A DNA stretch of 64,000 bases from the NCBI GenBank assembly GCA_040882575.1, contig JBBEBA010000053.1, forward strand, positions 25,534 through 89,533. The letters are read 5' to 3'. Position 1 is the stretch's first letter; every line of letters begins with the position of its first letter. Shown piece after piece: positions 1,784-36,837 of this stretch. The notes under the pieces were generated by a model. It saw only the letters and a program-made list of their open reading frames with translations. It did no database searches and had not been told where the DNA came from. The position numbers were made by a program, and so were the translations under genes. The stretch is from Gemmatimonadota bacterium. GTDB lineage: Bacteria > Gemmatimonadota > Gemmatimonadetes > Longimicrobiales > RSA9.

Positions 1784-2187
1784 ATCGGGACGCTGATCGG
1801 GCTGGTCGGGGCAGATCTGGTCATCGCGCTGAAGGAGCCGATGTCGAACGTCGCGGCGCGGGCGTTCATGTTGGAGCGCGAGAAACGTGAGCTCCGCTTC
1901 GAGCCACTGGCACTTATCGAACGTCAGGCCCAGACGCCCTCTTCATCCCGCTCAGCCTTGGCGCAACCGCCTGCGAGCGTCTCGGCCGAGCGGGCCATCT
2001 TCTGCGGGGTGGACTGGATAGCTGCCCCACTGCGATTTCTCGTCACTCTGTCTCGTGCTCACGCAACGAGGCGGACTGCCCGCTCACGCTCCTCTGCTGA
2101 ATACTGTCATGCTCTTGATATGGCTCCAATCTCTCACGAGTTGGAACCTCCAAAACCGGGGGCGTTCAGACGCTTTCTTCACAAATC

Positions 2188-2217
2188 CCTGACAAACTCC
2201 TGACAAGGCTCTGACAT
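2188..2217 (+). repeat. Three CTGACAW motifs phased at 11-nt intervals upstream of the sigma-like gene
   Basis: Read directly: CTGACAA at 2189-2195 and 2200-2206, CTGACAT at 2211-2217. The spacing is one helical turn, ~160 nt upstream of the ATG at 2377. Confidence 0.6.
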
Positions 2218-2376
2218 TAGCATATTGCGAGAGGCTGACTTCGGCTCCAAGGTTCGAATGAGCCCCAGAGTCGTCCTGCGTTTGCCAGTCGTCGATTCTG
2301 CAATGAGGACACTCGAAAAAGAGGGGCGGTTCGTTGACATTGTCGAGGTGAACCTGTCGAACCACGGAGTCTTGAC

Positions 2377-3006
2377 ATGACGACTTGCGAAAACGGCGGG
2401 GCTTGGACGCCTGCCCGAACTTTGGAAACCGTCGCCGTCAACCGATCGGTTGGAAACCGGAAGGCTTTCCTCGCGCAGGCCGTGGGCATGGTGTCGATAC
2501 TGGCCCGCAAGTTTCCCGGCCTTGACCATGCCGATGTATGTAATGCTGTAGCCGATGCCGTTGACGAGTGGCAGTGCAAGGTCGGATCTACAGGCGCACA
2601 GCCGGACCCTCGGCATCTCCTTCATGCGGCATGGTGTAACTGCGCCAACTGTGCGCGAAGCAGTGATAGGCGGGGGCAGCGTGAACGGCGTTGGTTCGAA
2701 TCCAGTATCAGTAGTCGGGAGCGTGAATGGATGGACGCCCGCGAAATGCAGTTCGGCGTGTTTCGCCGACGCGTCGCGGAACTTATGCCGGACGACGAGA
2801 TGCGGTCAATATTTTCGTGCTGGCTAATCGGAGAGCGGGACACGCAAGTTTATGTGGAAGCGCTAGGTCTGGCCGATGCCTCTGACGACGTCCAGCATCA
2901 GTCGGTCAAGCGAGCAAAAGACCGACTAGTCAAGTTCCTCAGTCGGAGCCGGGCGGTTCGAGTTTGTAGTGATGACTACATCCGCTGGAGTTCGGTGCTG
3001 CATTGA
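2377..3006 (+). CDS. Sigma-70/ECF-like putative transcription factor with an internal Cys cluster
   Basis: 209-aa ORF with GGAG 7 nt upstream of the ATG. The N-terminal part (KAFLAQAVGMVSILARKFPGLDHADVCNAVADAVDEW) resembles sigma region 2. The C-terminal part (MRSIFSCWLIGERDTQVYVEALGLADASDDVQHQSVKRAKDRLVKFL) resembles a region-4 helix-turn-helix. HAAWCNCANC lies between them. Assignment is by eye only. Confidence 0.5.
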   Translation: MTTCENGGAWTPARTLETVAVNRSVGNRKAFLAQAVGMVSILARKFPGLDHADVCNAVADAVDEWQCKVGSTGAQPDPRHLLHAAWCNCANCARSSDRRGQRERRWFESSISSREREWMDAREMQFGVFRRRVAELMPDDEMRSIFSCWLIGERDTQVYVEALGLADASDDVQHQSVKRAKDRLVKFLSRSRAVRVCSDDYIRWSSVLH

Positions 3007-3102
3007 TGTCGAACCCAGCCCCATTGGCGGGGATTGTTGATATAGGGAGTACCAGGTGCCGCGCTCGGTGGCCCTGGAGGGCACTTGGCTCGGGAGGAAA
3101 GT

Positions 3103-3375
3103 ATGCTCGTGAATGGAATAGCTAGGCGAGCCGCTGTCGTTGCCGTCATGGCGATAGTGGCGCTCTCTACGCCGGCTCAGACGGAAGACAGTGGGGAAGC
3201 CCAGGCTGCTGGTGACTGGTGCGGGCAGTGGAAATGCGTCCACATGAAGTTGTACTGTGACGGCGAAGCAATAACGCTGTTCTGCAACGCAGTTTGCGAG
3301 GGTTGGGTGGATGCCAATTGTACTACGCATAAGTCGTGTGGGGCCGGCGAGGTGTACGTCAGGTGCAATGGATGA
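3103..3375 (+). CDS. Small secreted cysteine-rich protein (90 aa precursor, 8 Cys in the predicted mature part)
   Basis: GGAGG lies 5 nt upstream of the ATG at 3103 (the ORF-track start at 3085 is a TTG). The signal-like N-terminus is MLVNGIARRAAVVAVMAIVALSTPAQT...EAQA. The mature part is AGDWCGQWKCVHMKLYCDGEAITLFCNAVCEGWVDANCTTHKSCGAGEVYVRCNG. I recognise no family. Confidence 0.6.
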   Translation: MLVNGIARRAAVVAVMAIVALSTPAQTEDSGEAQAAGDWCGQWKCVHMKLYCDGEAITLFCNAVCEGWVDANCTTHKSCGAGEVYVRCNG

Positions 3376-3450
3376 GTTCTCCCAAATACTAGGGCTGCAA
3401 AGCGGCTGCTGCGGGGAACGATATCGGCTGAAGGGCTCTAACAGCAGAGG

Positions 3451-4140
3451 ATGCCATCCATGAAGAGCAGAGCTGAGACGCTCATGTCGGCAGTACTAAC
3501 CGTGGCCGCCGTAGTGCTAACAGGTGCGGTGCTAACGCGTGAATATGGATTCCGCTCAAATGCTGTGGGAAGTACGCCTCCTTCTGGAGAGCCAGAGCTG
3601 TACGAAGATTGGAGAGAATGGATCGCTCACGGCGAAATATCAGGAGATGACTCGGCATCGGCGATTGTCATCGAATTTGCCGATTTCGAGTGCCCTGCAT
3701 GCCGCAGATTCCATCACGCTGTCCTCACGCCTGTCAAGGATACCTTTGGCGCTTCTGTCGCAGTCGTCTTTATGCATCTCCCTCTAAGCATGCACCGCTT
3801 CGCGGAGCCCGCTGCCCGAGCGAGCGAATGTGCGTCAAATCAGGCCAGGTTCTTCCAGTTTGCTGACGTTGTGTTCGAGAAACAGGATTCCCTGGGACTA
3901 AAAACATGGTCATCCTATGCCGCCGAGGCAGGAGTTACGGACGCAGAGAGGTACTCCAACTGCGTATCGCTACAAACGTCCTTCCCCCGAATAGCCATGG
4001 GCAAGTCAATCGCCACAGAGTTGGGGATAACTGGGACTCCGACGGTTTTCATAAACGGCTGGAGATTCCCCACGCCCCCAAGTGAAGCTGAAATGGAACG
4101 CGTGATTGGGGAGATCCTGGCGGGAAGAGCGCCATTTTGA
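3451..4140 (+). CDS. Membrane-anchored DsbA-family thiol:disulfide oxidoreductase
   Basis: 229-aa ORF with an N-terminal TM helix (LMSAVLTVAAVVLTGAVL). The CxxC motif sits in a DsbA-type context: VIEFADFECPACRRFHH. An alternative ATG at 3460 has better spacing to AGAGGA. Confidence 0.75.
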   Translation: MPSMKSRAETLMSAVLTVAAVVLTGAVLTREYGFRSNAVGSTPPSGEPELYEDWREWIAHGEISGDDSASAIVIEFADFECPACRRFHHAVLTPVKDTFGASVAVVFMHLPLSMHRFAEPAARASECASNQARFFQFADVVFEKQDSLGLKTWSSYAAEAGVTDAERYSNCVSLQTSFPRIAMGKSIATELGITGTPTVFINGWRFPTPPSEAEMERVIGEILAGRAPF

Positions 4141-5369
4141 TGAACGAGATACGGAATGGCTGTCTAGCCGTGAATTACGGGTTCATTTTCCCGGGTGCTC
4201 GAGCTTGGTGGAAGGCTGGGCGCATTCTTCGGATCAGCGTCTGCCTTGCCGCTGCGGTATCAAGTATCGCTCCTCCCGCCCAAGCCCAGAGGGTGACGTC
4301 CCGCGGATCGGGCCCCCAGGCGTCTTTCGTTGAAGGCTTTACCACGATTGTAGCTGTGCGCGAGCTGACCGACGGCCGCGTCGTGATCGTCGATTCCCAC
4401 GAACGGAGGATCGCCATCCTGGATTCATCGCTAACACAACTGCGACCAGTTGGCCGACATGGTGCAGGCCCCGGAGAGTTCGAGATACCGATGGGTCTTT
4501 TCGCGCTGGTGGGTGACAGCTCCGCGGTCTACGATCCGCCGAACTCGCGCATGCTAGTCATCACCCCGGCAGGCGAGACCGGCGGCGTGCTCGGCACCCT
4601 GGGACTACCGATCGGAGAGCCCGCGCGTCTGAGCGGCGTGCATCAGCCGGCAGCGACCGACGGCTCCGGGAACTTCTACGCACAGTCAGCGGCGGGCGTG
4701 GAGGACGGTGGTACCACGCGCCACGGGCCTCTCCTGCGGTGGAACACCTCCGATCCTGACCCCGACACGGTCGCTTTGCTGCCCTTGCCGGAGCAGGGCC
4801 GAGTCATTTCGGCGCCGGGCGCGATGGTTGCAAGGCTGCCGATGCCGCTGTTTCAGCCGCGAGCCGTCTGGGCCGTCGCCCGAGACGGCCGGGTCGCGAT
4901 CGTGTTTCCGGAGCCGTATCACGTCGAGATCGTACACCCGGACGGAACCCGTCGCCGCGGAACTGCCATTCCCGTCGAGCCCCTGAAGCTCACGGACGAG
5001 CATAAGACCGAGTGGCGCAGGGAAGTTGCGAGGACGCAGCTTCGAGTCGTCGTCGCGCGCGGTGGAGGATCAGCCTACCGGACCATTTCTGAGGACGAGG
5101 TCGCGGAACCTCCGGGATGGGAGCCTTTCCTCCCGCCGTTTCTCAGCGACGCGGCCGGCTTTGCAGGCGATGGCCGATTGTGGGTCAGACGAACCACTCC
5201 GCCCGATCGCGCTGCGACGTACGACGTATTCGACGCTAACGCACGCCTCGTCGAGGTCGTGGTCCTACCGCCGAACCGCCGCCTCGCCGGCTTTGGTGCC
5301 GACGCGGTTTACCTCGTCAGGCGCGACGATTTCGACCTGGAGTACCTCGAGCGGTGGATCCTTCGCTGA
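4140..5369 (+). CDS. Secreted beta-propeller protein (NHL/6-bladed-propeller-like)
   Basis: The ATG overlaps the DsbA stop (TGATG). A hydrophobic segment ends in AAAVSSIAPPAQAQ. Repeated strand motifs follow (DGRVVIVDSHERRIAILD; GEFEIPMGLFALVGDSSAVYDPPNSRMLVITPAG; DGRVAIVFPEPYHVEIVHPDG; DGRLWVRR). The fold call is by eye only. Confidence 0.55.
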   Translation: MNEIRNGCLAVNYGFIFPGARAWWKAGRILRISVCLAAAVSSIAPPAQAQRVTSRGSGPQASFVEGFTTIVAVRELTDGRVVIVDSHERRIAILDSSLTQLRPVGRHGAGPGEFEIPMGLFALVGDSSAVYDPPNSRMLVITPAGETGGVLGTLGLPIGEPARLSGVHQPAATDGSGNFYAQSAAGVEDGGTTRHGPLLRWNTSDPDPDTVALLPLPEQGRVISAPGAMVARLPMPLFQPRAVWAVARDGRVAIVFPEPYHVEIVHPDGTRRRGTAIPVEPLKLTDEHKTEWRREVARTQLRVVVARGGGSAYRTISEDEVAEPPGWEPFLPPFLSDAAGFAGDGRLWVRRTTPPDRAATYDVFDANARLVEVVVLPPNRRLAGFGADAVYLVRRDDFDLEYLERWILR

Positions 5370-5390
5370 TCCCGAGGAATGCTCTATACC

Positions 5391-5430
5391 TGCGCCTCCG
5401 AGCCTCCGCGTGCGCCTCCGAGCCTCCGCG
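5391..5430. repeat. Perfect tandem duplication of a 20-nt unit (TGCGCCTCCGAGCCTCCGCG x2) followed by TGTTTTTG
   Basis: Read directly, 22 nt after the stop of the beta-propeller gene. An AT-richer non-coding stretch follows, up to ~5650. Confidence 0.9.
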
Positions 5431-5653: not shown

Positions 5654-7063
5654 GTGCCCCCACAGCTGGCGCTCCTCTTAATGGTGAGCGACTCGAAGAA
5701 CCTGCCGGCGGCCGTCCGGTCGGCCGAGCGGCAGGTGCGCCACTGGGGAGACAGCTTCGGTGGCGACCCGGCTGACCCCGCGACGTGGGAATGGACGCGC
5801 GGCGCGAGTGCCGTGACGGCCGTCATCGACCTGCATCCGCCCGACCGGGCACGAGCCGCGCTCGCGGCGATCCGGCGCGTCCGTCCGGATGCCGCGGTGC
5901 TGCTGCTGTCGCAGGACGTCGCGGACGTGGACGGACCCGGCGACGGCACCCTGGCGCGGTCGGGCGGCCTGCGCGATGTCGTGCGACTCGATCTCGAGGA
6001 GGAGCTCGCGCGGCTGGAGGCGGAGCGGAGGGGCTACTGCCTGCGCGAGTTCGCCGCAGGCGACGATGTGGTGCCGATCCTGATCCACGATGATCCGGAT
6101 CCGGACGCCATGTCGAGCGCGCTCGCGGTGCGCGCTCTGATCGGCGGAACGCCGGAGCGGATGCCGATCGTGACGCTGGAGGAAGTGACCCGTCCGGAAA
6201 ACCGTCGCATGGCGGATCTGCTGCACATCAGGGTGACGCGCGTCACGTGCGACGAGCTGCGCCAGTTCGACCGGGTGATCACCGTCGATACGCAGCCGCG
6301 CGGACTGCAGCAGGACGGGAGGCCCCGGCTCGCCGTGATCGATCATCATCCGGCCGAGAACAGCTACGCGGCAGAGTTCCGCGACATACGCCCGCACTAC
6401 GGCGCCACGGCGACAATGCTGACGGAGTACCTGCGTGCGGCGTCGGGCATTCGCGTGCGTGGCAACCTCGCGACGGCGCTGCTCTACGGCATCAGGACGG
6501 ACACCGACTCGCTCGCGCGCGGCGTCACGCCCGCCGACGTCGCGGCGTACGCGTACCTGCAGGAGCACGCCGATGTCGATCTGATCAAGCGCTTCGAGCG
6601 GCCCAGCTACACGCTTGCGACGGCCCGTTCTTTCGCCGACGCGCTGCGCTCAGCCGAGTGCGACGAGGATCTGTGCGTCGCGTACGTCGGCGAGCTGCAG
6701 CCGCATGAGGCGCACGTCCTGGCCGACCTGGCCGACTTCTGTCTGGGCATCGAAAACATCACGTGGGTGGCGGTGGCCGCCGAGCTCGAAGGCGAGCTGG
6801 TGCTCACACTGCGGCACACGGGCAGCGACCCTGGCGCGGGCGGTGTCGCGCGCGCGCTCGCTTCGTTGCACGGCGGATCCGGCGGTGGACACGCGACCAT
6901 GGCCAGAGTTGCGATACCGGCAGATCGGGCGCGCACGATCCTGGATGGCGAGGAGATGGCGACTGCGGTACGGCGGCTGATTCGCGAGGCGATACGTCAT
7001 GCGGCCGGCGAATCCGCAGAGCGGTCTACTCGTCGAGATTCACCCCAAGCTCGTCCGGCGTGA
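5654..7063 (+). CDS. DHH-family phosphoesterase (NrnA/RecJ-like core) with a ~150-aa N-terminal extension
   Basis: 469-aa ORF with a GTG start. DHH motifs are ILIHDDPDPDAMSSALA, VIDHHP and TDTDS. The DHHA1 GGGH motif is present (LHGGSGGGHATMA). The N-terminal ~150 aa are unassigned. Confidence 0.8.
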   Translation: MPPQLALLLMVSDSKNLPAAVRSAERQVRHWGDSFGGDPADPATWEWTRGASAVTAVIDLHPPDRARAALAAIRRVRPDAAVLLLSQDVADVDGPGDGTLARSGGLRDVVRLDLEEELARLEAERRGYCLREFAAGDDVVPILIHDDPDPDAMSSALAVRALIGGTPERMPIVTLEEVTRPENRRMADLLHIRVTRVTCDELRQFDRVITVDTQPRGLQQDGRPRLAVIDHHPAENSYAAEFRDIRPHYGATATMLTEYLRAASGIRVRGNLATALLYGIRTDTDSLARGVTPADVAAYAYLQEHADVDLIKRFERPSYTLATARSFADALRSAECDEDLCVAYVGELQPHEAHVLADLADFCLGIENITWVAVAAELEGELVLTLRHTGSDPGAGGVARALASLHGGSGGGHATMARVAIPADRARTILDGEEMATAVRRLIREAIRHAAGESAERSTRRDSPQARPA

Positions 7064-7673: not shown

Positions 7674-9818
7674 TCAGTATGCGGCGAGCTCGTCGATGGC
7701 CGCGACGATGTCGTGGGTCTGCGGCAGGATCACGTCTTCGAGCTGCGGTGCATATGCCACCCAGGTGTCCATGGATGCGACGCGACGGACGGGCCCGTCG
7801 AGGTGCTCGAAGAGGTCGCTCGCGATGCGTGCCACGATCTCGGAGCCGATGCCCCACGACAGTGAGTCTTCGTGCGCGACGATGACCTTGCCCGTCTTGC
7901 GCACGGATGCGGCGATGGTGTCCATGTCGAGCGGGTTGAGCGAGCGGAGGTCGATCACCTCGACACTGATGCCGCGTTCCCCCGCGATGCGTGCTGCATC
8001 GAGCGAGCGCTTCACGACGGCGCCGCAGGTGATCACCGACAGGTCCGTGCCCTCCCGCACCACGGTCGCGCTGCCGAACGGGATCATGAAGTCGGGGCCC
8101 GGGTTCCGCCCCTTGTTGTAGACCTGCCGGTATAGATGCTTGTGCTCGAGGAAAATCACCGGATCCTCCGAGCGTATTGCGGTGCGGAGCAGGCCGTTCG
8201 CATCGAGCGCCGTGGCTGGCAGCACGACGCGCAGACCGGGCGTGTGGGTGAACAGCGTCTCGCCCGTCTGCGAGTGATAGATCGCGCCGCCCTTGAGGTA
8301 GCCGCCGTACGCGACGCGGATAACCACCGGGCACCACCAGTTGCCGCCGGAGCGGTAGCGCATGGTCGCGAGCTCGTCGCGGATCTGCATCATCGCCGGC
8401 CAGATGTAGTCGAAGAACTGGATCTCGACGACCGGCTTCAGGCCGCGTACGGCCATACCGATGGCGCGCCCGACTATGTTCGCCTCGGCGAGCGGCGTGT
8501 TGAACACGCGGTTCGAGCCAAATTTCCGCTGCAGGCCCCAGGTGCATTTGAAGACGCCGCCCTTGCCCTTCACTTCCTCGAGGGACGCTTCGCGGCTGCA
8601 GTCGGCGACGTCCTGGCCGAATACGACGATGCGCGGATCGCGCTGCATCTCGTCGCGAATGGCGACATTGATGAGATCGACCATGGTCGTCTCACCGCCC
8701 GCGAACTGCGGATCATCCTCCGTGTCGAAATCCGAAGACGTTGGATCGACGTTCGGCGAGAACAGGTGGTCGAGCGCAGTTTCGGGCGCCGGCTGCGGCA
8801 TTGCGATCGCGCGATCCGATGCGCCACGAACGTCCTCATCGACCTGCTTCTCGAGCGCGTCGAGCTCGGCCGCGGTCGCAATGCCCAGCTCGATGAGATC
8901 CCGTCGCGCGACGACGATCGGGTCCTGCTCCGCGTCCAGGCTGCGCTCCGACTCCGGGCGGTACAGCCGCTCGTCATCCGACATCGAGTGCGAGTACGGC
9001 CGCACCACGTGCGCGTGCAGCAGGGCAGGACCTTTCCGCTCGCGCGCGTACGCGACAGCGCGGCCGCAGGCTTCCCAGCTCTCGGTCAGACGCGTACCGT
9101 CGAACTCCTCGATGTACAGGTCCGGGAAGCCGGTGAGCAGTGCGCTGATGTTCCCGCCAGCCGTGCCCACCTCGACCGGCACCGAGATCGCATAGCCGTT
9201 GTCCTGGATCAGGAACACGACAGGCAGCTTCAGGTTCGTCGCCGTATTGAGCGCTTCCCAGAACTCGCCCTCCGATGTCTGGCCCTCGCCCGACGTGCAC
9301 AGCACGACCTCGTCCCTGGCGAATCCGGCGATGGCCGCGCTCATCGCTTCATCGCGCCCCGCACGCATGCCGGACTCCGCGCAGCCGACCGCCTGCAGGT
9401 ACTGCGTGCCGGTCGGCGATGACGTCGATGCGATGCGCAGCTCGCGGCTGCTCCAGTGTGACGGCATCTGACGCCCGCCACTCGCCGGATCCGCTGCGGC
9501 GCCGACCGCCTGCAGCAGCTGGTCGTACGGCGTTACGCCCAGCGCCTGGCTGAGTGCACGATCACGGTAGTAGAGGTAGAACCAGTCGGAGCCCGGACGC
9601 AGGTGTGCCGCCACTGCGACCTGCACTGCCTCATGGCCGGCGCCCGAGATCTGGAAGAAGATCCGGTTCTGTCGCTTGAGCAGGATCTCCTGATCGTCCG
9701 TCCGACGCGCCGCGACCATGGTGCGGTACATCGCGATGAGGCGGTCGCCGCTCAACACGCCGCGCCCCATCGTTCCGACGCTCTTCCGAGCGGCCTCCTT
9801 CTTCGTCTTTGCAGGCAT
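7674..9818 (-). CDS. 2-oxoacid dehydrogenase E1 component, fused alpha/beta subunits (TPP-dependent)
   Basis: 714-aa ORF. The N-terminal half is E1-alpha-like ([26 protein letters not shown]...[17 protein letters not shown]). The C-terminal half is E1-beta/transketolase-like ([36 protein letters not shown]...). Confidence 0.9.
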
Positions 9819-11795: not shown

Positions 11796-12465
11796 CGCCG
11801 GCACCCTGCACGTGGACATGCACGTGCACACGCGCGGCTCGTTCGACTGTCTGAGCGACCCGCACGCGGTGATCGCGCGTGCAGTGGCCTGTGGCCTCGA
11901 CCGCGTGTGCATCACGGACCACAATGCCATAGATACGGCTGTCGCCCTGAAGGATGCGTACCCGGGCCGCGTGATCGTCGGTGAAGAAGTCAAGACCGCC
12001 GAGCGCATCGACATCATCGGGCTTTTCCTGAGCGACCTGATCCCCGGCGGCACGCCCGCGCGCGAGACCTGTCTCCGCATCCGCGAGCAGGGCGGCCTCG
12101 TCTATGTGCCGCATCCGTTCGCCGCGGGCAAGGGCGGCGCGGGGGTGCTCGACGCCATCGAGGACCTCGTGGACGCGTTCGAGGGTTTCAACGCACGCAT
12201 CCATGACAGTGCCCTGAACGATCGCGCTGTCGCGTGGGCGAACGCGCGCAGCGTGCCGATCGGCGCAGGTTCCGACGCACATACGCTGCGCGAGATCGGC
12301 CGCGGTCGTGTCGTCGTGCCACATTTCGGGGCCGGTCCGGCGGCGTTCCTGGCCGCCCTCGCCGCAGGACACATAGAAGGACGCATGTCGCCGCACGCGG
12401 TGCACCTCGCGTCCACCTGGGCCAAAGTACGGAAGCAGCTGCCCGGCGGCCGCTTCGAAAGGTGA
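11788..12465 (+). CDS. PHP-domain metal-dependent phosphoesterase
   Basis: LHVDMHVHTRGSFDC...ITDHNAID...VYVPHPF...GSDAH motifs are present. The start is ATG 11788 (or GTG 11779) and overlaps the coaE end. Confidence 0.8.
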   Translation: MNDAGTLHVDMHVHTRGSFDCLSDPHAVIARAVACGLDRVCITDHNAIDTAVALKDAYPGRVIVGEEVKTAERIDIIGLFLSDLIPGGTPARETCLRIREQGGLVYVPHPFAAGKGGAGVLDAIEDLVDAFEGFNARIHDSALNDRAVAWANARSVPIGAGSDAHTLREIGRGRVVVPHFGAGPAAFLAALAAGHIEGRMSPHAVHLASTWAKVRKQLPGGRFER

Positions 12466-13520
12466 TGGATATGAGTGCAGACATAGAAGTGCCCCCGAAG
12501 CGGCAGGCAGCACTGCACAGCGTCGTTCGGACGCTGCTCGCCGCAGACAGAATCGTTCTCACGACGCATGTGAATGCCGACGGCGACGGCGCGGGCTCGG
12601 AGGCCGCCATCGCCCACTGGCTGCGCGGCCTCGGCCGCACCGTGCACATCGTGAATCCGACGGCGTTCCCGGACCTGTTCCGCTACCTGATCGATGACGA
12701 TTCGATTGTGCTCGACGCGGGAACCGTCGCGGCCGACCGCGCCCTCGCCGACGCGGATCTGCTGGTCGTCGTCGATACGGCGGAGGCCAAGCGCATCGGC
12801 CGCGTCGCGCGCGCTGCCGAAACCATGCAGCTCGCGATCATCGATCATCATGTCGAGGGCGACGTATCGCTCCGGGGCGTCACCGTTCAGGACGTCACCG
12901 CGTGCGCGACCGCCGAGCTCGTCTACGATCTGCTCGTCTCCGCAGGGCTGCCGCGGCCGTGGCCGCAGCCCGTGCTCGAAGCGATCTATACGGGCATCAC
13001 CACCGACACCGGCTCGTTCAGGTTCGCGAACACGACGCGCCGCACGCACGAGCTCGCCGGCGATCTCATCGAGCAGGGCGTCAATCCCGAGCTCATGTAC
13101 CGCCGCATCTACGCGACCGTCCCGCTCCACCGCGTTCAGCTGCTGCGTCACGCGCTGGAGCACCTCGAGGTCGACCCCGACTACCCGATCACGAGCATCA
13201 CCATCGAACGCGGCATCATGGAAGCGCTCGGCGCAGGATCCGACGACCTCGAGGGCGTCGTCGAACACGCGCGCGCCGTCGAGGGCACCGAAGTCGCCAT
13301 CCTCTTCCGCGAGACCGCCGACGGCTCCACCAAGATCTCGCTCCGCTCCGCCGGCGACATCGATGTCAACACCATCGCCCGCCAGTTCGGCGGCGGCGGT
13401 CACGTCAAGGCGTCCGGTGCGCTCATTGCCGGTCCGTTCCGCGAGGCGCGCGAGCGCGTCCTCACAGCCACCCGCAGCGCGCTCGGCACGGACTTCCGCC
13501 GCACGCGCGGCGCGTCGTAA
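12465..13520 (+). CDS. nrnA: Bifunctional oligoribonuclease/pAp phosphatase NrnA (DHH/DHHA1)
   Basis: The in-frame ATG at 12465 overlaps the upstream stop (TGATG). Motifs are THVNADGDGAGS, IIDHH, TDTGSFRF and FGGGGHVKASG. Confidence 0.85.
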   Translation: MDMSADIEVPPKRQAALHSVVRTLLAADRIVLTTHVNADGDGAGSEAAIAHWLRGLGRTVHIVNPTAFPDLFRYLIDDDSIVLDAGTVAADRALADADLLVVVDTAEAKRIGRVARAAETMQLAIIDHHVEGDVSLRGVTVQDVTACATAELVYDLLVSAGLPRPWPQPVLEAIYTGITTDTGSFRFANTTRRTHELAGDLIEQGVNPELMYRRIYATVPLHRVQLLRHALEHLEVDPDYPITSITIERGIMEALGAGSDDLEGVVEHARAVEGTEVAILFRETADGSTKISLRSAGDIDVNTIARQFGGGGHVKASGALIAGPFREARERVLTATRSALGTDFRRTRGAS

Positions 13521-31858: not shown

Positions 31859-33805
31859 ATGAAGTGGCGGTTTGTCCTGCTGATGCTGACCTGCGCCGGC
31901 TGCGCGTCCTATGGCCGGCAGCCGCAGCCCGTCGAGACTGTGCCTGTCCCCGACTCGCCGGAAGCACAGCGCATTGCGGAGCTGCCACCCATCCCGGCGG
32001 TGGACGGGCCGCTGGCACTCGATGTCGGCTACCCACCAGAGGGTGGTACCATCGCCGTGCGCGATTCCAACTTCATCTTCGGCTCCACCGGGTCCGGCCG
32101 CACGCAGCTCGCTATCAACGGCCAGCCGGTCCAGGTCGCACCCAATGGCGGATTCCTCGCCTTCATTCCGGTCCCGCCCAACGGCGTATACCTCCTGCAG
32201 GCCACGCTGGACGGCCTTGCGGCGACGCTCGAGCGCCGGGTCAATGTCCCCGCACCACCTCGCACGGCGGACGTCGCGGACACGGGCCCGCGCATCGCCG
32301 CGGCATACCCGACCGGTGCGTGGTCCGTGCGCGAAGGCGAGGTGATCGAGGTCGGCTTCAGTGCAGCGGCGGGCGGCGCTGCGGCCGTTCTCCTGCCCGA
32401 CGGCCGGCGCGTGCCGCTCGTCGCGCAGGGCACCGTTGCCGAGGCGCGCAGCGGAGAGCAGTTCCGCACCGACGCGGCCGCGCCCATTGGTACGGCCTCG
32501 GTGATACGGTATTCCACCATCGTGCGCATGGACGTGCCGGTGCAGGCGAGTGACACGTCGGTCGCGCGGCCGACGATCGCAGACGTTCCGCTGGACGCCG
32601 GCGAAGCCACGTTCGAGTACGTCGCCGGCGCCGACACCGTGCGCACGCCGCTCGCACTCAACCTGGCGCTGCTGCCGCCCGACCTGCCTCGCGTCGCCGT
32701 CGTCGCGGCGCCCGCCGATGCGGCTTCCGACTGGACGGTGCGCGGACGCAACGACGTCGCTGGTCCGTTTCACTACTTCTGGCCGGCCGGTACGCGACTG
32801 GGCATCACGGGCGAACGCAACGGTATGTACCGCGCGAGCCTCGCAGGCGGCCGCACCGTGTGGGTGCCTGCAGGAGACACGCGGCTGCTGCCCGGCGGTG
32901 CGCCGCCCGCTGGCGGTGCCGTCGGGTCCGTACGGCTGTCGCCTGGCCCGCACTGGATCGACGTCCGCATACCGCTGCCGGAGCGCATGCCGTTCCAGGT
33001 AGTGACCGAAGAGCGTTCACTCCATATCGACGTGTTCGGTGCGACCTCGCGCGTCAACTTCTTCCAGTACGGCCGGCTCGACCCGTTCGTGACCTTTGCC
33101 GAGTGGAGCCAGCCCACGGACAGCGTGTTCCGCGTCAGCCTGGAGCTGGCCGAGCCGGTCTGGGGCTACGACACGTTCTTCGACGCATCCGGCGCGCTCG
33201 TGCTGCGCATCCGCCGGCCGCCTGCCGTTGATCCCGCTGCTCCGTTGCGCGGCCTCTTCGTCGCGGTGGATCCCGGCCACGGCGGCGAGGACCGCTCCAC
33301 GCGGGGGCCAACCGGACTGACGGAGGCGGACGCGAACCTGGCGATCTCGCTGCGACTCCGACAGCTGCTCGAAGAGGCGGGGGCGCGCGTGATGATGACG
33401 CGCGTGACGGACGCGACGATTCAGCTCGGGGACCGACCGCTCATGGCGACGGACTCCGGCGCCCATGTCCTGCTATCGATCCACAATAACGCGTTTCCGG
33501 ACGGCGTGAATCCGTGGGCGAACAGCGGCACCAGCGTGTATTACTTCCATCGTCAGTCCGCTCCGCTGGCACGTGCGCTGCAGCGGGAGCTGCTGCAGGA
33601 GCTCGGCCTGCGCGACATCGGACCCGGCCGCGCCGACCTCGCGCTCGCGCGCCCGACGTGGCTGCCCGCCGTGCTGACGGAGACCATGTTCATGATGATC
33701 CCTGAACAGGAAGCAGCGCTGCGCGACCCGGTCGTGCAGGACCGGATCGCGCGTGCTCACCTGCGCGCGCTCGAATCCTTCATGCGCGGCCGACTGCAGC
33801 AATGA
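31859..33805 (+). CDS. N-acetylmuramoyl-L-alanine amidase (Amidase_3 C-terminal domain), lipoprotein
   Basis: 648 aa with lipobox LLMLTCAGC. The C-terminus has VAVDPGHGGED...LLSIHNNAF...LTETMFMMIPEQE. Confidence 0.85.
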   Translation: MKWRFVLLMLTCAGCASYGRQPQPVETVPVPDSPEAQRIAELPPIPAVDGPLALDVGYPPEGGTIAVRDSNFIFGSTGSGRTQLAINGQPVQVAPNGGFLAFIPVPPNGVYLLQATLDGLAATLERRVNVPAPPRTADVADTGPRIAAAYPTGAWSVREGEVIEVGFSAAAGGAAAVLLPDGRRVPLVAQGTVAEARSGEQFRTDAAAPIGTASVIRYSTIVRMDVPVQASDTSVARPTIADVPLDAGEATFEYVAGADTVRTPLALNLALLPPDLPRVAVVAAPADAASDWTVRGRNDVAGPFHYFWPAGTRLGITGERNGMYRASLAGGRTVWVPAGDTRLLPGGAPPAGGAVGSVRLSPGPHWIDVRIPLPERMPFQVVTEERSLHIDVFGATSRVNFFQYGRLDPFVTFAEWSQPTDSVFRVSLELAEPVWGYDTFFDASGALVLRIRRPPAVDPAAPLRGLFVAVDPGHGGEDRSTRGPTGLTEADANLAISLRLRQLLEEAGARVMMTRVTDATIQLGDRPLMATDSGAHVLLSIHNNAFPDGVNPWANSGTSVYYFHRQSAPLARALQRELLQELGLRDIGPGRADLALARPTWLPAVLTETMFMMIPEQEAALRDPVVQDRIARAHLRALESFMRGRLQQ

Positions 33806-36800
33806 CCGCGCGCCGCGCGCTGCCGCTGCTGGCTTGCGCCGTGCTGCTCTGCGGTGCGCGCGGCGCGGCCCGCGCGCAGCTGCCGGCCGACGCAGACTGG
33901 CGCACGCTCGAAGCCGCGAACTTCCGCGTCACCTATGTCGCCGGCCTGGATGACCTCGCCCGTCATGCCCTCGCGAGCGCGCAGCGCGCGCACGCAGCAC
34001 TCGTCGTGCTCGTCGCGGAGGCGCCCACTGGCACGATCGACATCGTGCTGGCCGACAATGTGGATTTCACGAACGGCTATGCCTCGCCGTTCCCGTCCAA
34101 CCGCATCGTCATCTACGCGAAGCCGCCTTCCGATGTGCTGGAGCTGCAGTACATCCGGGACTGGGTGGAGCTCGTGGTGACTCACGAGCTCGCTCACATC
34201 TTCCACCTCGACGTCAGCGGCCCGTTCGGCCGCTTCGCGCGCGGCATCTTCGGTCGTGCACCACTGCCCTGGCCCGTCTTCACCGCGATCGGCTCGCCCT
34301 CCTGGAGCATCGAAGGGCTGGCCGTCGTGATGGAATCCACGATCGCCGGATACGGCCGCGCGCTCGGCAGCTACAACGAGATGATCGTCCGCACCGCGCT
34401 GCTCGAGGATGAGATCGACAGCATCGACGAGCTGTCCTCAGCGTCGCCGGTCTGGCCCGGCGCGGCGCGCGCCTATATCTACGGCTCGCTGTTTCTCGAC
34501 TACCTCGCCAGACGCTATGGACCCGACGTCGCCGCGCGCATTGTCGGCCGCACCGCGGTTTCGCTGATCCCCGCGCCACTCTGGTTCGGCAATGTCGGCC
34601 GATCCGCGTTCGGCCTCACGTTCCGCGACGCGTACGACGACTGGCGGGCAGAGCTCGCCGGACGGTATGACCGTCTGTCGCGCGAGCTCACTGCGCAGAG
34701 GTTGACGATTGCGCAGCCGCTCAAGCACCATGGCGGCGATGCGCTCTATCCGCGCTTCTCGCCCGATGGCCGCTTCATCGTCTATGCCGCGAACGATCGT
34801 CGCACAGCGCCGCGCACGCAGGTCATCGATGCGGCAACCGGCGTGCACGCGTGGTCGGAGCGTCGCAACGACGTCGCCGCCTCGGACTGGTTGCCGGACG
34901 GCCGCGTGCTCACTTCGACGATCGACTACATCGATCCGTTCCGCGTCTACGGCGATCTCTACATCGTGTCCGACGGCAGTGAACAGCGCGTCACACGCGC
35001 GGCCCGGCTGCACGACGTGGACGTGGCGCGATCGGGTCGCGCGGTCGCCGTCGAGACGCACGGCGGCACCAACCGCCTGGTCCTTCTCGAGCCATCGACC
35101 GGGGACCGCCGGCCCCTCACCGGTTTCGAGCCCGGCACACTCTGGTCTCTCCCGCGCTTCTCGCCGGACGGCGACCGCATTGCCGCAGGTCGTTGGCGTT
35201 CGGGCGGGCACTACGACACCGTGGTGCTCGACACGATCGGCGGCGCCCCCGCGGTGCTCGACGCCGGCGGCGGCATCAGCGCCGCGCCCGTCTGGTCACC
35301 CGACGGCCGGTGGCTGCTGTTCTGGTCGGACCGCACGGGCATTGCGAACCTCTTCGCCATCGATACCGCACGCACCACGCTGCGCCAGGTGACGAACGTC
35401 CTCACCGGCGCGTTCTTCCCGGATATCTCACCCGACGGCCGCTTCATCGCGTTCTCCACGTATCACCACAACGGATTCCGCATCGAGCGCATCCCGTTCG
35501 ACCCGACTCAATGGCGCGAGCCAATGCCGGACGCGCTGCTCACCATGCCAGACGATCGCGGAGTCTACGATCAGCCGGACACCGCGGCGCGTCTGACGGC
35601 GCGCGCGGTCACAGCCGCGGCCGGGACCGACACGCTGCCGCAGGCCGCCGGCGCCTACCGCCCGCTGCGGCATCTGCGACCCTACTACTGGCTGCCCCTC
35701 CTCAGCATCGACGATGCCGGCGACGACTACGCCGGGCTCACAACAGGCGGCCGCGATCTCGTCGGCCGACACGGGTGGTACGCATCCGCGCTGATCGCAC
35801 CTTCGTCCGGCCGCACGCAGGGCAGCATCGGCTACTCCTATCGCGGCCTGCCGCCGCTCGGTGCTGCCGGACTGCACCCATCGCTGTCGCTGTCCGCAGC
35901 TCGCGACTGGGATCCGCTCATTCGCCCGGCAGAGCCCGGCGGGCTCTACGTGGACGAGCGCGAAGACGCGGCTGCCGCAGCCGTCGACCTCACCATCGTG
36001 CGCTGGCGCACCCGCACCGGCCTCGTGCTGGCCGGCGAGCTCGTTCGCCGCTCGCGCTACCTCGGCAACACCGATTCGCTCATCCTGAACGACGCGGCCG
36101 ATGACCTCTTCGGCGCGCGCGCCATGGCATACTTCGCGAACACAGTGCTGCCGCCGCTCGCCGTCAGCCGCCAGAGCGGCGTCACCGCACAACTCGCCGG
36201 GAGGCAGCGATGGGATCGAGATCCGGCGGCCGATCTCCCGGCTTCGTACTCGGAGCTGATTACCCACAACACCGCGTACCTGGACCTGCCGCTTCCCGGC
36301 TTTGCGCGACACGTGCTCGCGACCCGCATCAGTGCGCTGCTCCGCCAGGGCGGCGGCGCTGATCCCGCCAGCATCGGCGGCGCCAGTGCTCCCGGTCTCG
36401 ACGCGGATGTCGATCTCGACTTCGTCACCTCCCTCGGCGGCGCCTCCCGGCTGCTCCCGGTTCGCGGCTTTGCCGAGGGCGTGCGGTTCGGCACCCGCGC
36501 TTGGTCCGCTTCCGCCGAGTACAGGTTTCCCATCGCGCTCGTCAGCCGCTCCTTCCGGCCCCTGCCCATCTTCCTCGATCGCGTCGCGGGAGACCTCTTC
36601 CTCGACGCCGGCGACGCCTGGTGCGACGCCGCCACCGCTTCCCGGTTCCCTGCCGGCTCCTGTCCGCGGCAGCCCGCTTCCGCTCCGCTCCTGTCCGCCG
36701 GCGCCGAGCTGACCACTTTCCTCGCCGCCTGGGGCGTCCCGCTCCCGCTCCGCTTCGGCGCCGCCGTGCCACTCCACGGCCGCCCCGCCGACCACCGCCG

Positions 36801-36837
36801 TCTCCGGTTCCACGTCCTCATAGGCCCTTCCTTCTGA
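33802..36837 (+). CDS. Large envelope protein: HEXXH metalloprotease-like N-terminus, TolB-like beta-propeller repeats, barrel-like C-terminus ending in Phe
   Basis: 1011 aa with a signal peptide (LLACAVLLCGARGAARAQ). VVTHELAHIFH is present. WD40-like/TolB repeats are PRFSPDGRFIVYAAND, PRFSPDGDRIAAG, WSPDGRWLLFWSDRTG and ISPDGRFIAFSTY. The C-terminus is ...LRFHVLIGPSF. Confidence 0.7.
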   Translation: MTARRALPLLACAVLLCGARGAARAQLPADADWRTLEAANFRVTYVAGLDDLARHALASAQRAHAALVVLVAEAPTGTIDIVLADNVDFTNGYASPFPSNRIVIYAKPPSDVLELQYIRDWVELVVTHELAHIFHLDVSGPFGRFARGIFGRAPLPWPVFTAIGSPSWSIEGLAVVMESTIAGYGRALGSYNEMIVRTALLEDEIDSIDELSSASPVWPGAARAYIYGSLFLDYLARRYGPDVAARIVGRTAVSLIPAPLWFGNVGRSAFGLTFRDAYDDWRAELAGRYDRLSRELTAQRLTIAQPLKHHGGDALYPRFSPDGRFIVYAANDRRTAPRTQVIDAATGVHAWSERRNDVAASDWLPDGRVLTSTIDYIDPFRVYGDLYIVSDGSEQRVTRAARLHDVDVARSGRAVAVETHGGTNRLVLLEPSTGDRRPLTGFEPGTLWSLPRFSPDGDRIAAGRWRSGGHYDTVVLDTIGGAPAVLDAGGGISAAPVWSPDGRWLLFWSDRTGIANLFAIDTARTTLRQVTNVLTGAFFPDISPDGRFIAFSTYHHNGFRIERIPFDPTQWREPMPDALLTMPDDRGVYDQPDTAARLTARAVTAAAGTDTLPQAAGAYRPLRHLRPYYWLPLLSIDDAGDDYAGLTTGGRDLVGRHGWYASALIAPSSGRTQGSIGYSYRGLPPLGAAGLHPSLSLSAARDWDPLIRPAEPGGLYVDEREDAAAAAVDLTIVRWRTRTGLVLAGELVRRSRYLGNTDSLILNDAADDLFGARAMAYFANTVLPPLAVSRQSGVTAQLAGRQRWDRDPAADLPASYSELITHNTAYLDLPLPGFARHVLATRISALLRQGGGADPASIGGASAPGLDADVDLDFVTSLGGASRLLPVRGFAEGVRFGTRAWSASAEYRFPIALVSRSFRPLPIFLDRVAGDLFLDAGDAWCDAATASRFPAGSCPRQPASAPLLSAGAELTTFLAAWGVPLPLRFGAAVPLHGRPADHRRLRFHVLIGPSF

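Follow-up and report, generated by a model that had tools for sequence, protein, structure and literature searches.

The window analysed here, a stretch of 64,000 nucleotides from a Gemmatimonadota bacterium (assembly GCA_040882575.1, contig JBBEBA010000053.1, positions 25,534 to 89,533 of the forward strand), carries at positions 3103-3375 a gene for a mini-protein with eight cysteines, followed on the same strand by a gene for a DsbA-like thiol:disulfide oxidoreductase. This gene pair belongs to an undescribed class of cassettes in soil bacteria. The mini-protein gene is genuine and conserved, its pairing with the DsbA-like gene is found again in close homologues and recurs across a wider class, relatives of the pair lie beside further modules, and the islet that carries it in the window has a foreign composition. 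As the best explanation of the whole, we propose a mini-protein that is exported by Sec, folded by its oxidase and acts as an extracellular ligand, a reading to which we assign a probability of about 0.5. An earlier note on this DNA had described the mini-protein and overlooked the DsbA-like gene; the pair of the two is the informative feature, and it makes the finding more interesting than a lone orphan peptide, as it marks an undescribed class of cassettes.

A conserved gene encodes an eight-cysteine mini-protein with a predicted Sec-type leader

The features of the gene pair are as follows.
3092-3097, plus strand: Shine-Dalgarno sequence GGGAGG, read from the sequence
3103-3375, plus strand: mini-protein gene, with ATG at 3103-3105 and TGA at 3373-3375, encoding a pre-protein of 90 aa
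3103-3207, plus strand: leader of the mini-protein, a candidate Sec-type signal peptide (residues 1-35 at most), with its n-, h- and c-regions read from the sequence
3208-3372, plus strand: mature eight-cysteine domain AGDWC...RCNG (alignments A1 and A5), with an invariant C-D-x-E and a CxxxC in a predicted helix
3451-4140, plus strand: DsbA-like thiol:disulfide oxidoreductase (alternative gene-caller start 3460), with an N-terminal transmembrane helix followed by a Thioredoxin_4/DSBA domain
3691-3702, plus strand: active site C-P-A-C of the DsbA-like protein, with the cis-Pro loop GTPTVFING further downstream

The open reading frame (ORF) that the earlier note had described, with a strong GGAGG-type site and a hydrophobic leader, was confirmed: it has 90 codons, and the GGGAGG lies 5 nt upstream of the ATG. 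The cysteines are C40, C45, C52, C61, C65, C73, C79, and C88, and their spacing, 4-6-8-3-7-5-8, matched the first reading exactly. The leader was compared by eye with the criteria for export by Sec and cleavage by signal peptidase I, that is, a basic n-region, a hydrophobic h-region of 10-15 residues and small residues at -3 and -1, and it fits them. The n-region MLVNGIARR contains the basic R8R9, the h-region is AAVVAVMAIVAL, with a hydrophobic run of 12 residues (A10-L21), and the c-region is STPA, with small residues at -3/-1. As the cleavage site is uncertain among three candidates (TPA/Q after residue 25, AQT/E after 27, and AQA/A after 35), the mature mini-protein would be 55-65 aa long, a wider range than the 55-60 residues given previously.

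The earlier note had also drawn attention to an arginine pair in the leader. This pair is present in the window copy, and in that copy alone, the homologues having TK, KK, VK, GK, or TM at this place. Because RR is not kept among the homologues, the leader is predicted to be a Sec-type signal and not a twin-arginine (Tat) signal; a Tat substrate was rejected, the motif S/T-R-R-x-F-L-K being absent from the family. A lipoprotein was rejected as well, as the leader lacks a lipobox cysteine. No family could be named from the sequence at first reading, and this held true: the window mini-protein had no match in Pfam or NCBIfam, and the PDB sequence search returned noise only. Residues 40-55 (window 3220-3267) faintly resemble the Ca-binding LDL-receptor class A module through x-C-D-G-E, with an E value of 0.059 for Ldl_recept_a, below the Pfam cut-off.

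A word-indexed search of 5.8 billion clusters with the single protein as the query retrieved nothing but the protein itself, carried by a Logan contig of 6.7 kb (L001; contigs and loci are cited by such numbers below). HMMER, run without filters on 1.84 billion representatives, yielded five small homologues of 86-92 aa (P0002, P0004, P0005, P0006, and P0008; E values of 2e-10 to 7e-4), besides two repeat-protein artefacts. All five are derived from metagenomes, and a six-member profile searched against the 5.8 billion clusters gave just these six, each a singleton. Although the six genes are only 26-41% identical, length, leader, eight cysteines and ribosome-binding site are kept throughout. 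In the alignment all eight cysteines are present in all six members, with one cysteine of P0006 shifted by one column, and D53 and E55 of the C-D-x-E motif are invariant. The leaders follow the consensus M-RLNGIA-KA-VV-AMA--AW-SPT-A, and a GGAGG-type site stands 5-10 nt before the start in 6/6 genes. Between the window gene and its homologues, the proportion of nonsynonymous differences (pN) was about half that of synonymous differences (pS). The earlier note had staked its claim on the existence of homologues with the same cysteine framework; five were found with all eight cysteines kept, and the claim survives. Because the eight cysteines are kept across homologues and pN is lower than pS, we conclude that 3103-3375 is a genuine conserved coding gene.

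A DsbA-like gene accompanies the mini-protein gene

The protein encoded downstream matched PF13462 (5.6e-23, 82 bits) and PF01323 (4e-7, 30 bits), both over the cut-off, and it has the hallmarks of DsbA-like proteins, namely a thioredoxin fold with a helical insert, a CxxC and a cis-Pro loop. With CPAC, the cis-Pro loop and the transmembrane anchor, the partner looks, from its sequence, like an active oxidase. Its gene starts 76-85 nt after the mini-protein gene (start 3451 or 3460; spacer 84 nt), and no terminator, stable hairpin or sigma-70 promoter was found between the two genes.

A DsbA-like homologue lies directly downstream of the mini-protein gene in three of the five homologue contigs (L004, L005, and L007), and the L006 contig stops before the partner position could be read. 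In L003, an IS630-like transposase with a helix-turn-helix N-terminus (602-1054) follows the mini-protein gene in place of the DsbA-like gene, an arrangement consistent with a cassette that is mobile or disrupted. The DsbA-like gene beside P0004 in L004 (965-1327) misses about 80 residues, including the CxxC, compared to the window protein, and could be a decayed gene or an assembly artefact of this 1.3-kb contig. CPxC was present in 30 of the 31 partner proteins listed, L009 having CSFC; this conservation is partly by construction, because the motif formed part of the search pattern.

With the pairing in hand, it is hardly credible that the mini-protein ORF is non-functional, either as a chance ORF in GC-rich DNA or as a decaying remnant. 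The extreme rarity of the close family (six singletons among 5.8 billion clusters), its location in a foreign islet and the loss of the CxxC region from the L004 partner gene would suit such an explanation. However, length, leader, cysteines and ribosome-binding site were retained in every one of the six genes at their low identity, pN was half pS, and synteny with the DsbA-like partner was kept.

The pairing recurs across a wider class

The class was defined via a metagenome scan with the DsbA-like protein (as a two-sequence alignment), which gave at least 80 loci. Among these, L008-L047 (n = 40) hold relatives with about 33-44% identity, mostly near full length including the anchor, and L048-L087 (n = 40) match chiefly the generic thioredoxin domain (Thioredoxin_4 loci) and formed the control set. 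Two independent screens, one for at least six cysteines in the last 70 residues and one with the hidden Markov model (HMM) of the six-member family, converged on small ORFs beside the DsbA-like gene. With a class HMM, an adjacent mini-protein was found in 32/40 subfamily loci and in 0/40 control loci (Fisher 7e-15), a count that is partly circular, as the same sequences had served to build the HMM.

The distance between the mini-protein gene and the DsbA-like gene was 22-576 nt across the 32 loci, with 1105 nt in L047. On the same strand as the DsbA-like gene were 31 of the 32 mini-proteins, 27 upstream (36-576 nt) and four downstream; the remaining one lies downstream in the opposite orientation. 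Of the eight loci without a hit, five had short flanks: four contigs break off shortly before the DsbA-like gene, and L012 offers about 300 nt on each side. L042 has just an atypical mini-protein candidate, and L010 and L017 lack a mini-protein. In L010, a 93-aa ORF that precedes the DsbA-like gene was considered and is not a mini-protein.

The class mini-proteins are 78-105 aa long, with a mature part of 44-64 aa. Their leaders are signal-like and end in an AxA site just before the first cysteine, and a GGAGG/GGAG site was seen in about 30 class members. The number of mature cysteines was even in 42 of 43 class sequences (8 in 37, 10 in four, and 6 in one). Eight class members tested had no Pfam or NCBIfam match, a profile search of the 5.8-billion-cluster collection for the class returned only 'hypothetical' proteins, whose sources were JGI, ENA, and Logan and in no case NCBI or UniRef, and literature searches found no description of a class of mini-proteins with a DsbA-like partner.

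The predicted fold resembles that of defensins without their defining motifs

AlphaFold2 was run with the six-sequence alignment for the full-length and the mature-only protein. The mature domain reached a predicted local distance difference test (pLDDT) score of 78-84 in the full-length model, and the mature-only model had a pLDDT of 77.8 and a predicted template modelling (pTM) score of 0.58. Both models are beta-alpha-beta-beta, with strand 8-12, helix 19-29, strand 35-39, and strand 48-54 in the mature-only one. C61-NAV-C65 (CxxxC) lies in or at the end of a predicted helix of 11 residues, 54-64 (model with pLDDT of about 80).

Foldseek searches of PDB and BFVD returned nothing at E < 0.001. 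The top compact matches were AtD90 and OsAFP1, both plant defensins, and eurocin, a fungal one, with non-significant E values of 0.9-3.2 and template modelling (TM) scores of about 0.5-0.6 (7jn6, E 0.9-3.2 and TM 0.48-0.50; 2lt8, TMt 0.61). The check by AlphaFold and Foldseek that the earlier note had called for put defensins on top among the compact matches, with none of them significant. None of the six family members has a CxC in its last strand, which in the window copy holds C88 alone, eight residues from C79, and the family alignment has no conserved GXC gamma-core. Because the defining CxC and gamma-core are absent, the modelled mini-protein, which resembles a cysteine-stabilised alpha/beta (CS-alpha/beta) fold, is not a member of the cis-defensins. 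The defensin-like fold suggested previously is therefore only weakly supported: the topology with CxxxC in the helix agrees with it, the Foldseek matches to defensins are non-significant, and the missing motifs and the anionic peptide speak against it. The alternative suggestion of a knottin was not borne out, as a helix of 11 residues, atypical for knottins, is predicted at the core and no knottin was among the Foldseek matches.

Relatives of the pair lie beside pumps, receptors and peptidases

In L088, the mini-protein and DsbA-like genes form a tight operon with genes for a membrane-fusion protein, MacB (ABC + MacB_PCD + FtsX), and an outer-membrane factor, and in L008 and L013 a HlyD/MacB pair comes straight after the DsbA-like gene. 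A different module was found in L015 and L020, where the order is extracytoplasmic function (ECF) sigma factor, FecR, STN-type TonB receptor, S9 peptidase, mini-protein, DsbA-like protein, and a TonB-receptor-like protein of 733 aa. The pair is likewise found with ECF sigma, FecR, STN-type TonB receptor, and S9 peptidase in L022 and L035, and in L090 ECF sigma, FecR, and STN-type TonB receptor come after it. S9-family peptidases lie directly upstream of the mini-protein in about nine loci, and the one in L015 (7118-9337) scored 451.6 bits on the AtxE2 lasso-isopeptidase model NF033523 (cut-off 400). Taken together, the contexts in the relatives point to export and re-uptake.

The protein of about 733 aa recurs right after the DsbA-like protein in L014 (10691-12886), L015 (10691-12892), L020 (10691-12889), and L089 (9447-11696). 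It had no match in Pfam, NCBIfam, or PDB. BLAST gave it a remote similarity (E 2e-6), in plug and barrel, to the TonB-dependent receptor encoded nearby, and its role may be that of a divergent outer-membrane transporter reserved for the mini-protein. A second recurrent downstream gene, for about 340-385 aa, was found in L009 (2125-3246), L011 (1541-1951), L021 (2528-3553), L022 (10681-11784), and L035 (9576-10622); its representative from L022 had no Pfam or NCBIfam match. In L089, two diverged mini-protein paralogues (9001-9264, plus strand; 12553-12822, minus strand) surround the DsbA-like gene and a TonB-receptor-like gene of 749 aa, and the group adjoins a complete gene cluster for type IV secretion (conjugation) of the VirB/Trb kind, a location that suggests carriage on an integrative conjugative element.

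Metallophore systems typically have modules with TonB receptor, ECF sigma, and FecR. In the relatives, such modules, together with the acidic peptides, their invariant C-D-x-E and the weak local likeness to the Ca-binding LDL-receptor module, could be taken for signs of a metal-binding or redox thiol protein, a metallophore or metallochaperone whose reduced cysteines would bind Cu, Zn, or Fe and whose partner would be a TlpA/ResA-like reductase. We regard this as improbable. By its matches to PF13462 and PF01323 and by its helical insert, the partner is of the DsbA type and not of the TlpA/ResA type, an even cysteine number with variable spacing is that of disulfide scaffolds rather than metal sites, and there are no conserved CxxC or His-rich metal motifs.

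The mature mini-proteins diverge fast and are neutral to acidic

The DsbA-like partners were 65-77% identical in pairs of loci in which the mature mini-proteins were mostly 17-40% identical, with the exception of L022/L035 (88%). The ratio of nonsynonymous to synonymous substitution rates (dN/dS) was 0.12-0.57 in pairs with unsaturated dS, indicating purifying selection and thus real genes, and positive selection was rejected, as dN/dS was below 1 wherever it could be estimated. The mature part had a higher dN than the leader, as in L009/L044 (0.32 compared to 0.07 at similar dS), and in the Acidobacteria-type members the leader was better conserved than the core. A steady leader and cysteine framework with a fast-changing surface is the pattern of secreted interaction molecules.

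A leader that outlasts its core, in a neighbourhood like that of isopeptidase-containing lasso clusters, could also belong to the precursor of a ribosomally synthesised and post-translationally modified peptide (RiPP), with a leader-recognising maturase and modifications beyond disulfides. We consider this very unlikely. No lasso precursor, B or C genes were found among the ORFs scanned in the 20-kb L015 locus, the mini-protein and DsbA-like genes being there instead, and no lasso A/B/C genes were found among the window ORFs scanned, in the neighbour clusters recurring in at least four loci and their representatives, or in the Pfam annotation of L088-L091. Similarly, Pfam/NCBIfam scans of the window neighbours, the recurrent-cluster representatives and the L088-L091 annotation gave no maturase (radical SAM, MNIO, YcaO, or LanM). 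Moreover, the leaders show the canonical n/h/c layout of signal peptides with AxA sites, and a core of 50-60 residues is large for a RiPP.

The mature part of the window mini-protein has a net charge of about -1, the five close homologues have -5 to -12, and the class ranges from neutral to strongly acidic, with a median of -2 and only 2 of 43 sequences at +2 or above, which argues against a classical cationic antimicrobial peptide. The charge bears in the same way on another explanation, a narrow-spectrum bacteriocin or toxin, perhaps entering via the TonB-dependent receptors of competitors like siderophore-microcins, for which the NHL-repeat protein or the 209-aa protein encoded beside the window pair (see below) would give immunity. 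In its favour, the mature domain diverges fast while leader and oxidase stay conserved, the cassette is small and mobile, relatives carry exporters of the MacAB-TolC type, the closest structural look-alikes, though non-significant, are defensins, and dedicated oxidoreductases have precedents in bdbA/bdbB of sublancin (PMC4336743) and PedC of pediocin (PMC4919988). Nevertheless, dN/dS never exceeds 1, there is no recognisable immunity gene, and modules of TonB receptor, FecIR, and peptidase on the producer side are atypical of bacteriocin loci. To a bacteriocin we give perhaps one chance in four.

The window pair lies in a foreign islet with an NHL-repeat gene

Three further features belong to the locus.
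1950-5400, no strand: compositionally foreign islet carrying the cassette, in contrast with its flanks in GC content and in GC content at third codon positions (GC3)
2377-3006, plus strand: 209-aa ORF in the same low-GC3 islet, also predicted as a gene in contig L001 from Logan; its membership of the system is uncertain
4140-5369, plus strand: exported NHL-repeat beta-propeller of 409 aa with its own signal peptide, matching PDB 6d69 (E 1.4e-14) and, weakly, an NCBIfam NHL model

GC content is 52-61% over about 1950-4400, compared to 65-70% in the flanks. The GC3 values of the 209-aa ORF (0.62), the mini-protein gene (0.64), the DsbA-like gene (0.56), and the NHL gene (0.72) contrast with 0.82-0.90 in the surrounding chromosomal genes. 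With this low GC3, the IS630-like transposase in L003 and the type IV secretion cluster next to the L089 group, the cassette looks mobile; no plasmid (PLSDB) or viral (IMG/VR) copies of it were found.

The ATG of the NHL gene overlaps the TGA of the DsbA-like gene by one base (TGATG), an arrangement by which the two genes are predicted to be translationally coupled. NHL homologues occur close to the DsbA-like gene in L025-L029 and L037, and a scan of the genome collection with the NHL protein gave one locus, L002, in a Gemmatimonadota metagenome-assembled genome, with 37% identity and without the cassette. The 209-aa ORF had no match in Pfam, NCBIfam, or PDB and is absent from the other loci. 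A sigma factor, suggested by a likeness seen by eye, was dropped for this ORF, since it matched neither the databases nor the ECF sigma factor of L015.

Many small disulfide-rich proteins act as protease inhibitors. A compact, disulfide-rich scaffold, as predicted here, could accordingly be a periplasmic tight-binding inhibitor or regulator of a co-encoded enzyme, the S9 peptidase that recurs directly upstream in the relatives or the NHL propeller coupled to the cassette in the window. We think this unlikely, as the sole invariant partner is the DsbA-like protein, neither peptidase nor propeller, and the operon-encoded MacAB-TolC pumps speak for export past the periplasm. In addition, cognate inhibitors normally co-evolve with one enzyme, and a divergence down to 20-40% identity beside neighbours at about 70% would be unusual for them.

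The remaining window is an ordinary chromosome of a diderm, with ribonucleotide reductase, AnmK, an amidase, an Omp85-domain protein, and a TonB receptor. Scanning the window against Rfam and for tRNA genes gave no hits. Just past the islet, two paralogous phosphoesterases of the DHH/DHHA1 family (5654-7063 and 12234-13520) lie less than 7 kb apart. An ORF of 1011 aa (33802-36837) joins PD40 (WD40-like) propeller repeats to a C-terminal domain of the Omp85 superfamily, an unusual outer-membrane fusion. The segment 1201-1650, with about 77% GC and an AT skew of +0.42, lies inside a minus-strand ORF (2-1639) whose sole match is a weak one to Big_1, and is probably a low-complexity or repetitive coding region.

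A proposed route for the mini-protein

In the route that we propose, the pre-protein would be exported by Sec via its N-terminal signal peptide (step 1) and trimmed by signal peptidase I to a domain of 55-65 aa (step 2). The co-transcribed, membrane-anchored DsbA-like enzyme would then oxidise the eight cysteines to four disulfides, giving a compact beta-alpha-beta-beta product (step 3). Mini-protein, oxidase, and the translationally coupled periplasmic NHL propeller would make up a small, horizontally acquired operon. These first three steps are, on the sequence features described above, very probable. The folded, anionic, protease-resistant mini-protein would next leave the periplasm, through MacA-MacB-TolC from the same operon in the relatives and through an unlinked pump here (step 4), for which, by analogy with the relatives, we see an even chance. 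Outside, it may serve as a diffusible ligand of outer-membrane receptors (step 5). A loop of secretion, sensing and recapture, as has been suggested for siderophores and isopeptidase-type lasso peptides, seems likelier than the action of a cationic, membrane-active antimicrobial, and this last step is offered tentatively.

Several observations weigh against the proposed route. No pump, TonB receptor, FecIR, or S9 peptidase stands beside the window cassette, and distant class members are the source from which steps 4 and 5 were extrapolated. The likeness of those members is itself limited: between the window family and the Acidobacteria-type members, the common architecture and common partner are robust, and sequence homology appears weakly supported, the A1 profile giving E values of 3e-5 to 0.02 in four loci and above 0.1 in the rest. 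L010 and L017 carry the DsbA-like gene without a recognisable mini-protein, and the class-wide count has the circularity mentioned above. A DsbA-like fold is no proof of an oxidase, and the partner could be a reductase or an isomerase. Regarding re-uptake, a single S9 peptidase reaches the AtxE2 cut-off, five other upstream ones matching below it, and as these phyla are very rich in TonB receptors and ECF/FecR pairs, some of the adjacency could be coincidental.

Comparison with known systems

As a concept, disulfide peptides that are secreted, have an oxidoreductase of their own and are exported by a MacAB-type pump are known; what is undescribed is the cassette of a mini-protein with a dedicated DsbA-like protein. 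The heat-stable toxin STII (STb) of E. coli passes through Sec, then DsbA, then MacAB-TolC (PMC5985334). Like STII, the mini-protein is a small pre-protein with a Sec signal for which oxidation of the DsbA type in the periplasm is predicted, and the relatives L088, L008, and L013, which encode MacA-MacB(-TolC) in the operon, have the gene set needed for the STII route. Unlike STII, it does not match the STb family of Pfam and has four predicted disulfides instead of two, its oxidase is dedicated, membrane-anchored, and co-encoded rather than a housekeeping DsbA, no pump is linked to it in the window, and the hosts are soil bacteria rather than an enteric pathogen.

The sublancin operon sunA-sunT-bdbA-sunS-bdbB includes dedicated thiol-disulfide oxidoreductases (PMC4336743), and PedC of pediocin is likewise a dedicated oxidoreductase in a bacteriocin operon (PMC4919988). 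As in these systems, a secreted cysteine-containing peptide would be co-transcribed with its own oxidoreductase of thioredoxin fold on a mobile element. However, sublancin and pediocin come from Gram-positive bacteria and have a double-glycine leader cut by the peptidase of an ABC transporter, two disulfides, and known immunity genes, whereas here the leader is of Sec type, the cell is diderm, the cysteines number eight, and no immunity gene is recognisable.

Bacterial defensins have been divided into five classes and were mined by a CS-alpha/beta regular expression (PMC11561630). The window sequence cannot match the expression used for the published bacterial defensin sets. It shares with the cis-defensins a size of about 50 aa, the eight cysteines that plant and class V defensins also have, and the predicted beta-alpha-beta-beta order with CxxxC in the helix, and differs from them in having no CxC and no GXC gamma-core, in being anionic instead of cationic, and in its non-significant Foldseek matches.

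Isopeptidase-type lasso clusters contain an isopeptidase, a TonB-dependent transporter, and a sigma/anti-sigma pair, and the biological role of these clusters has been called enigmatic (PMC9266682). The modules of L015, L020, L022, and L035, with ECF sigma, FecR, STN-type TonB receptor, and S9 peptidase, are similar to those clusters (astexins and sphingopyxin), and both kinds of product are compact and protease-resistant, as inferred for the mini-proteins. Unlike lasso clusters, these modules have no lasso A/B/C, the compactness would come from disulfides and not from a threaded lactam, most of the S9 peptidases fall below the AtxE2 cut-off, and the lasso-like module is absent from the window locus itself.

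Precursors of venom peptides and of host-defence peptides, for instance the conotoxin superfamilies, have a conserved signal and cysteine framework, and the sequence between the cysteines diverges rapidly. The mini-proteins follow conotoxin superfamilies in this pattern alone, namely a conserved leader and cysteine framework with diverging inter-cysteine sequence; conotoxins are eukaryotic, there is no homology, and dN/dS is below 1 here.

Implications

Disulfide-rich mini-proteins, among them defensins, knottins, and conotoxins, are valued as hyper-stable drug scaffolds and are, to our knowledge, rare in bacteria. The class adds dozens of divergent sequences, each with its own putative folding catalyst, and offers in practice a two-gene expression module for peptides with four disulfides. 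It also provides a handle for mining: find this DsbA subfamily and read the adjacent small ORF. The relatives that link the pair to pumps, TonB/FecIR modules, and peptidases like lasso isopeptidases offer an independent system in which to study the role of secreted, recaptured, protease-resistant peptides, a matter that also concerns isopeptidase-type lasso peptides (PMC9266682).

More speculatively, and with a chance that we would put well below even, the mini-proteins, with the window gene as one branch, may form an unrecognised, widespread class of ribosomal, disulfide-stapled products in Acidobacteriota- and Gemmatimonadota-like soil bacteria, made by a minimal cassette of peptide and dedicated DsbA, exported by MacAB-TolC, sensed and taken up again through cognate TonB-dependent receptors, and opened by AtxE2-like S9 peptidases. 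If true, they would be the counterpart, built of protein, to siderophores and isopeptidase-type lasso peptides, serving as a cargo shuttle or self-signal, and their hypervariable surfaces would give strain-specific privacy.

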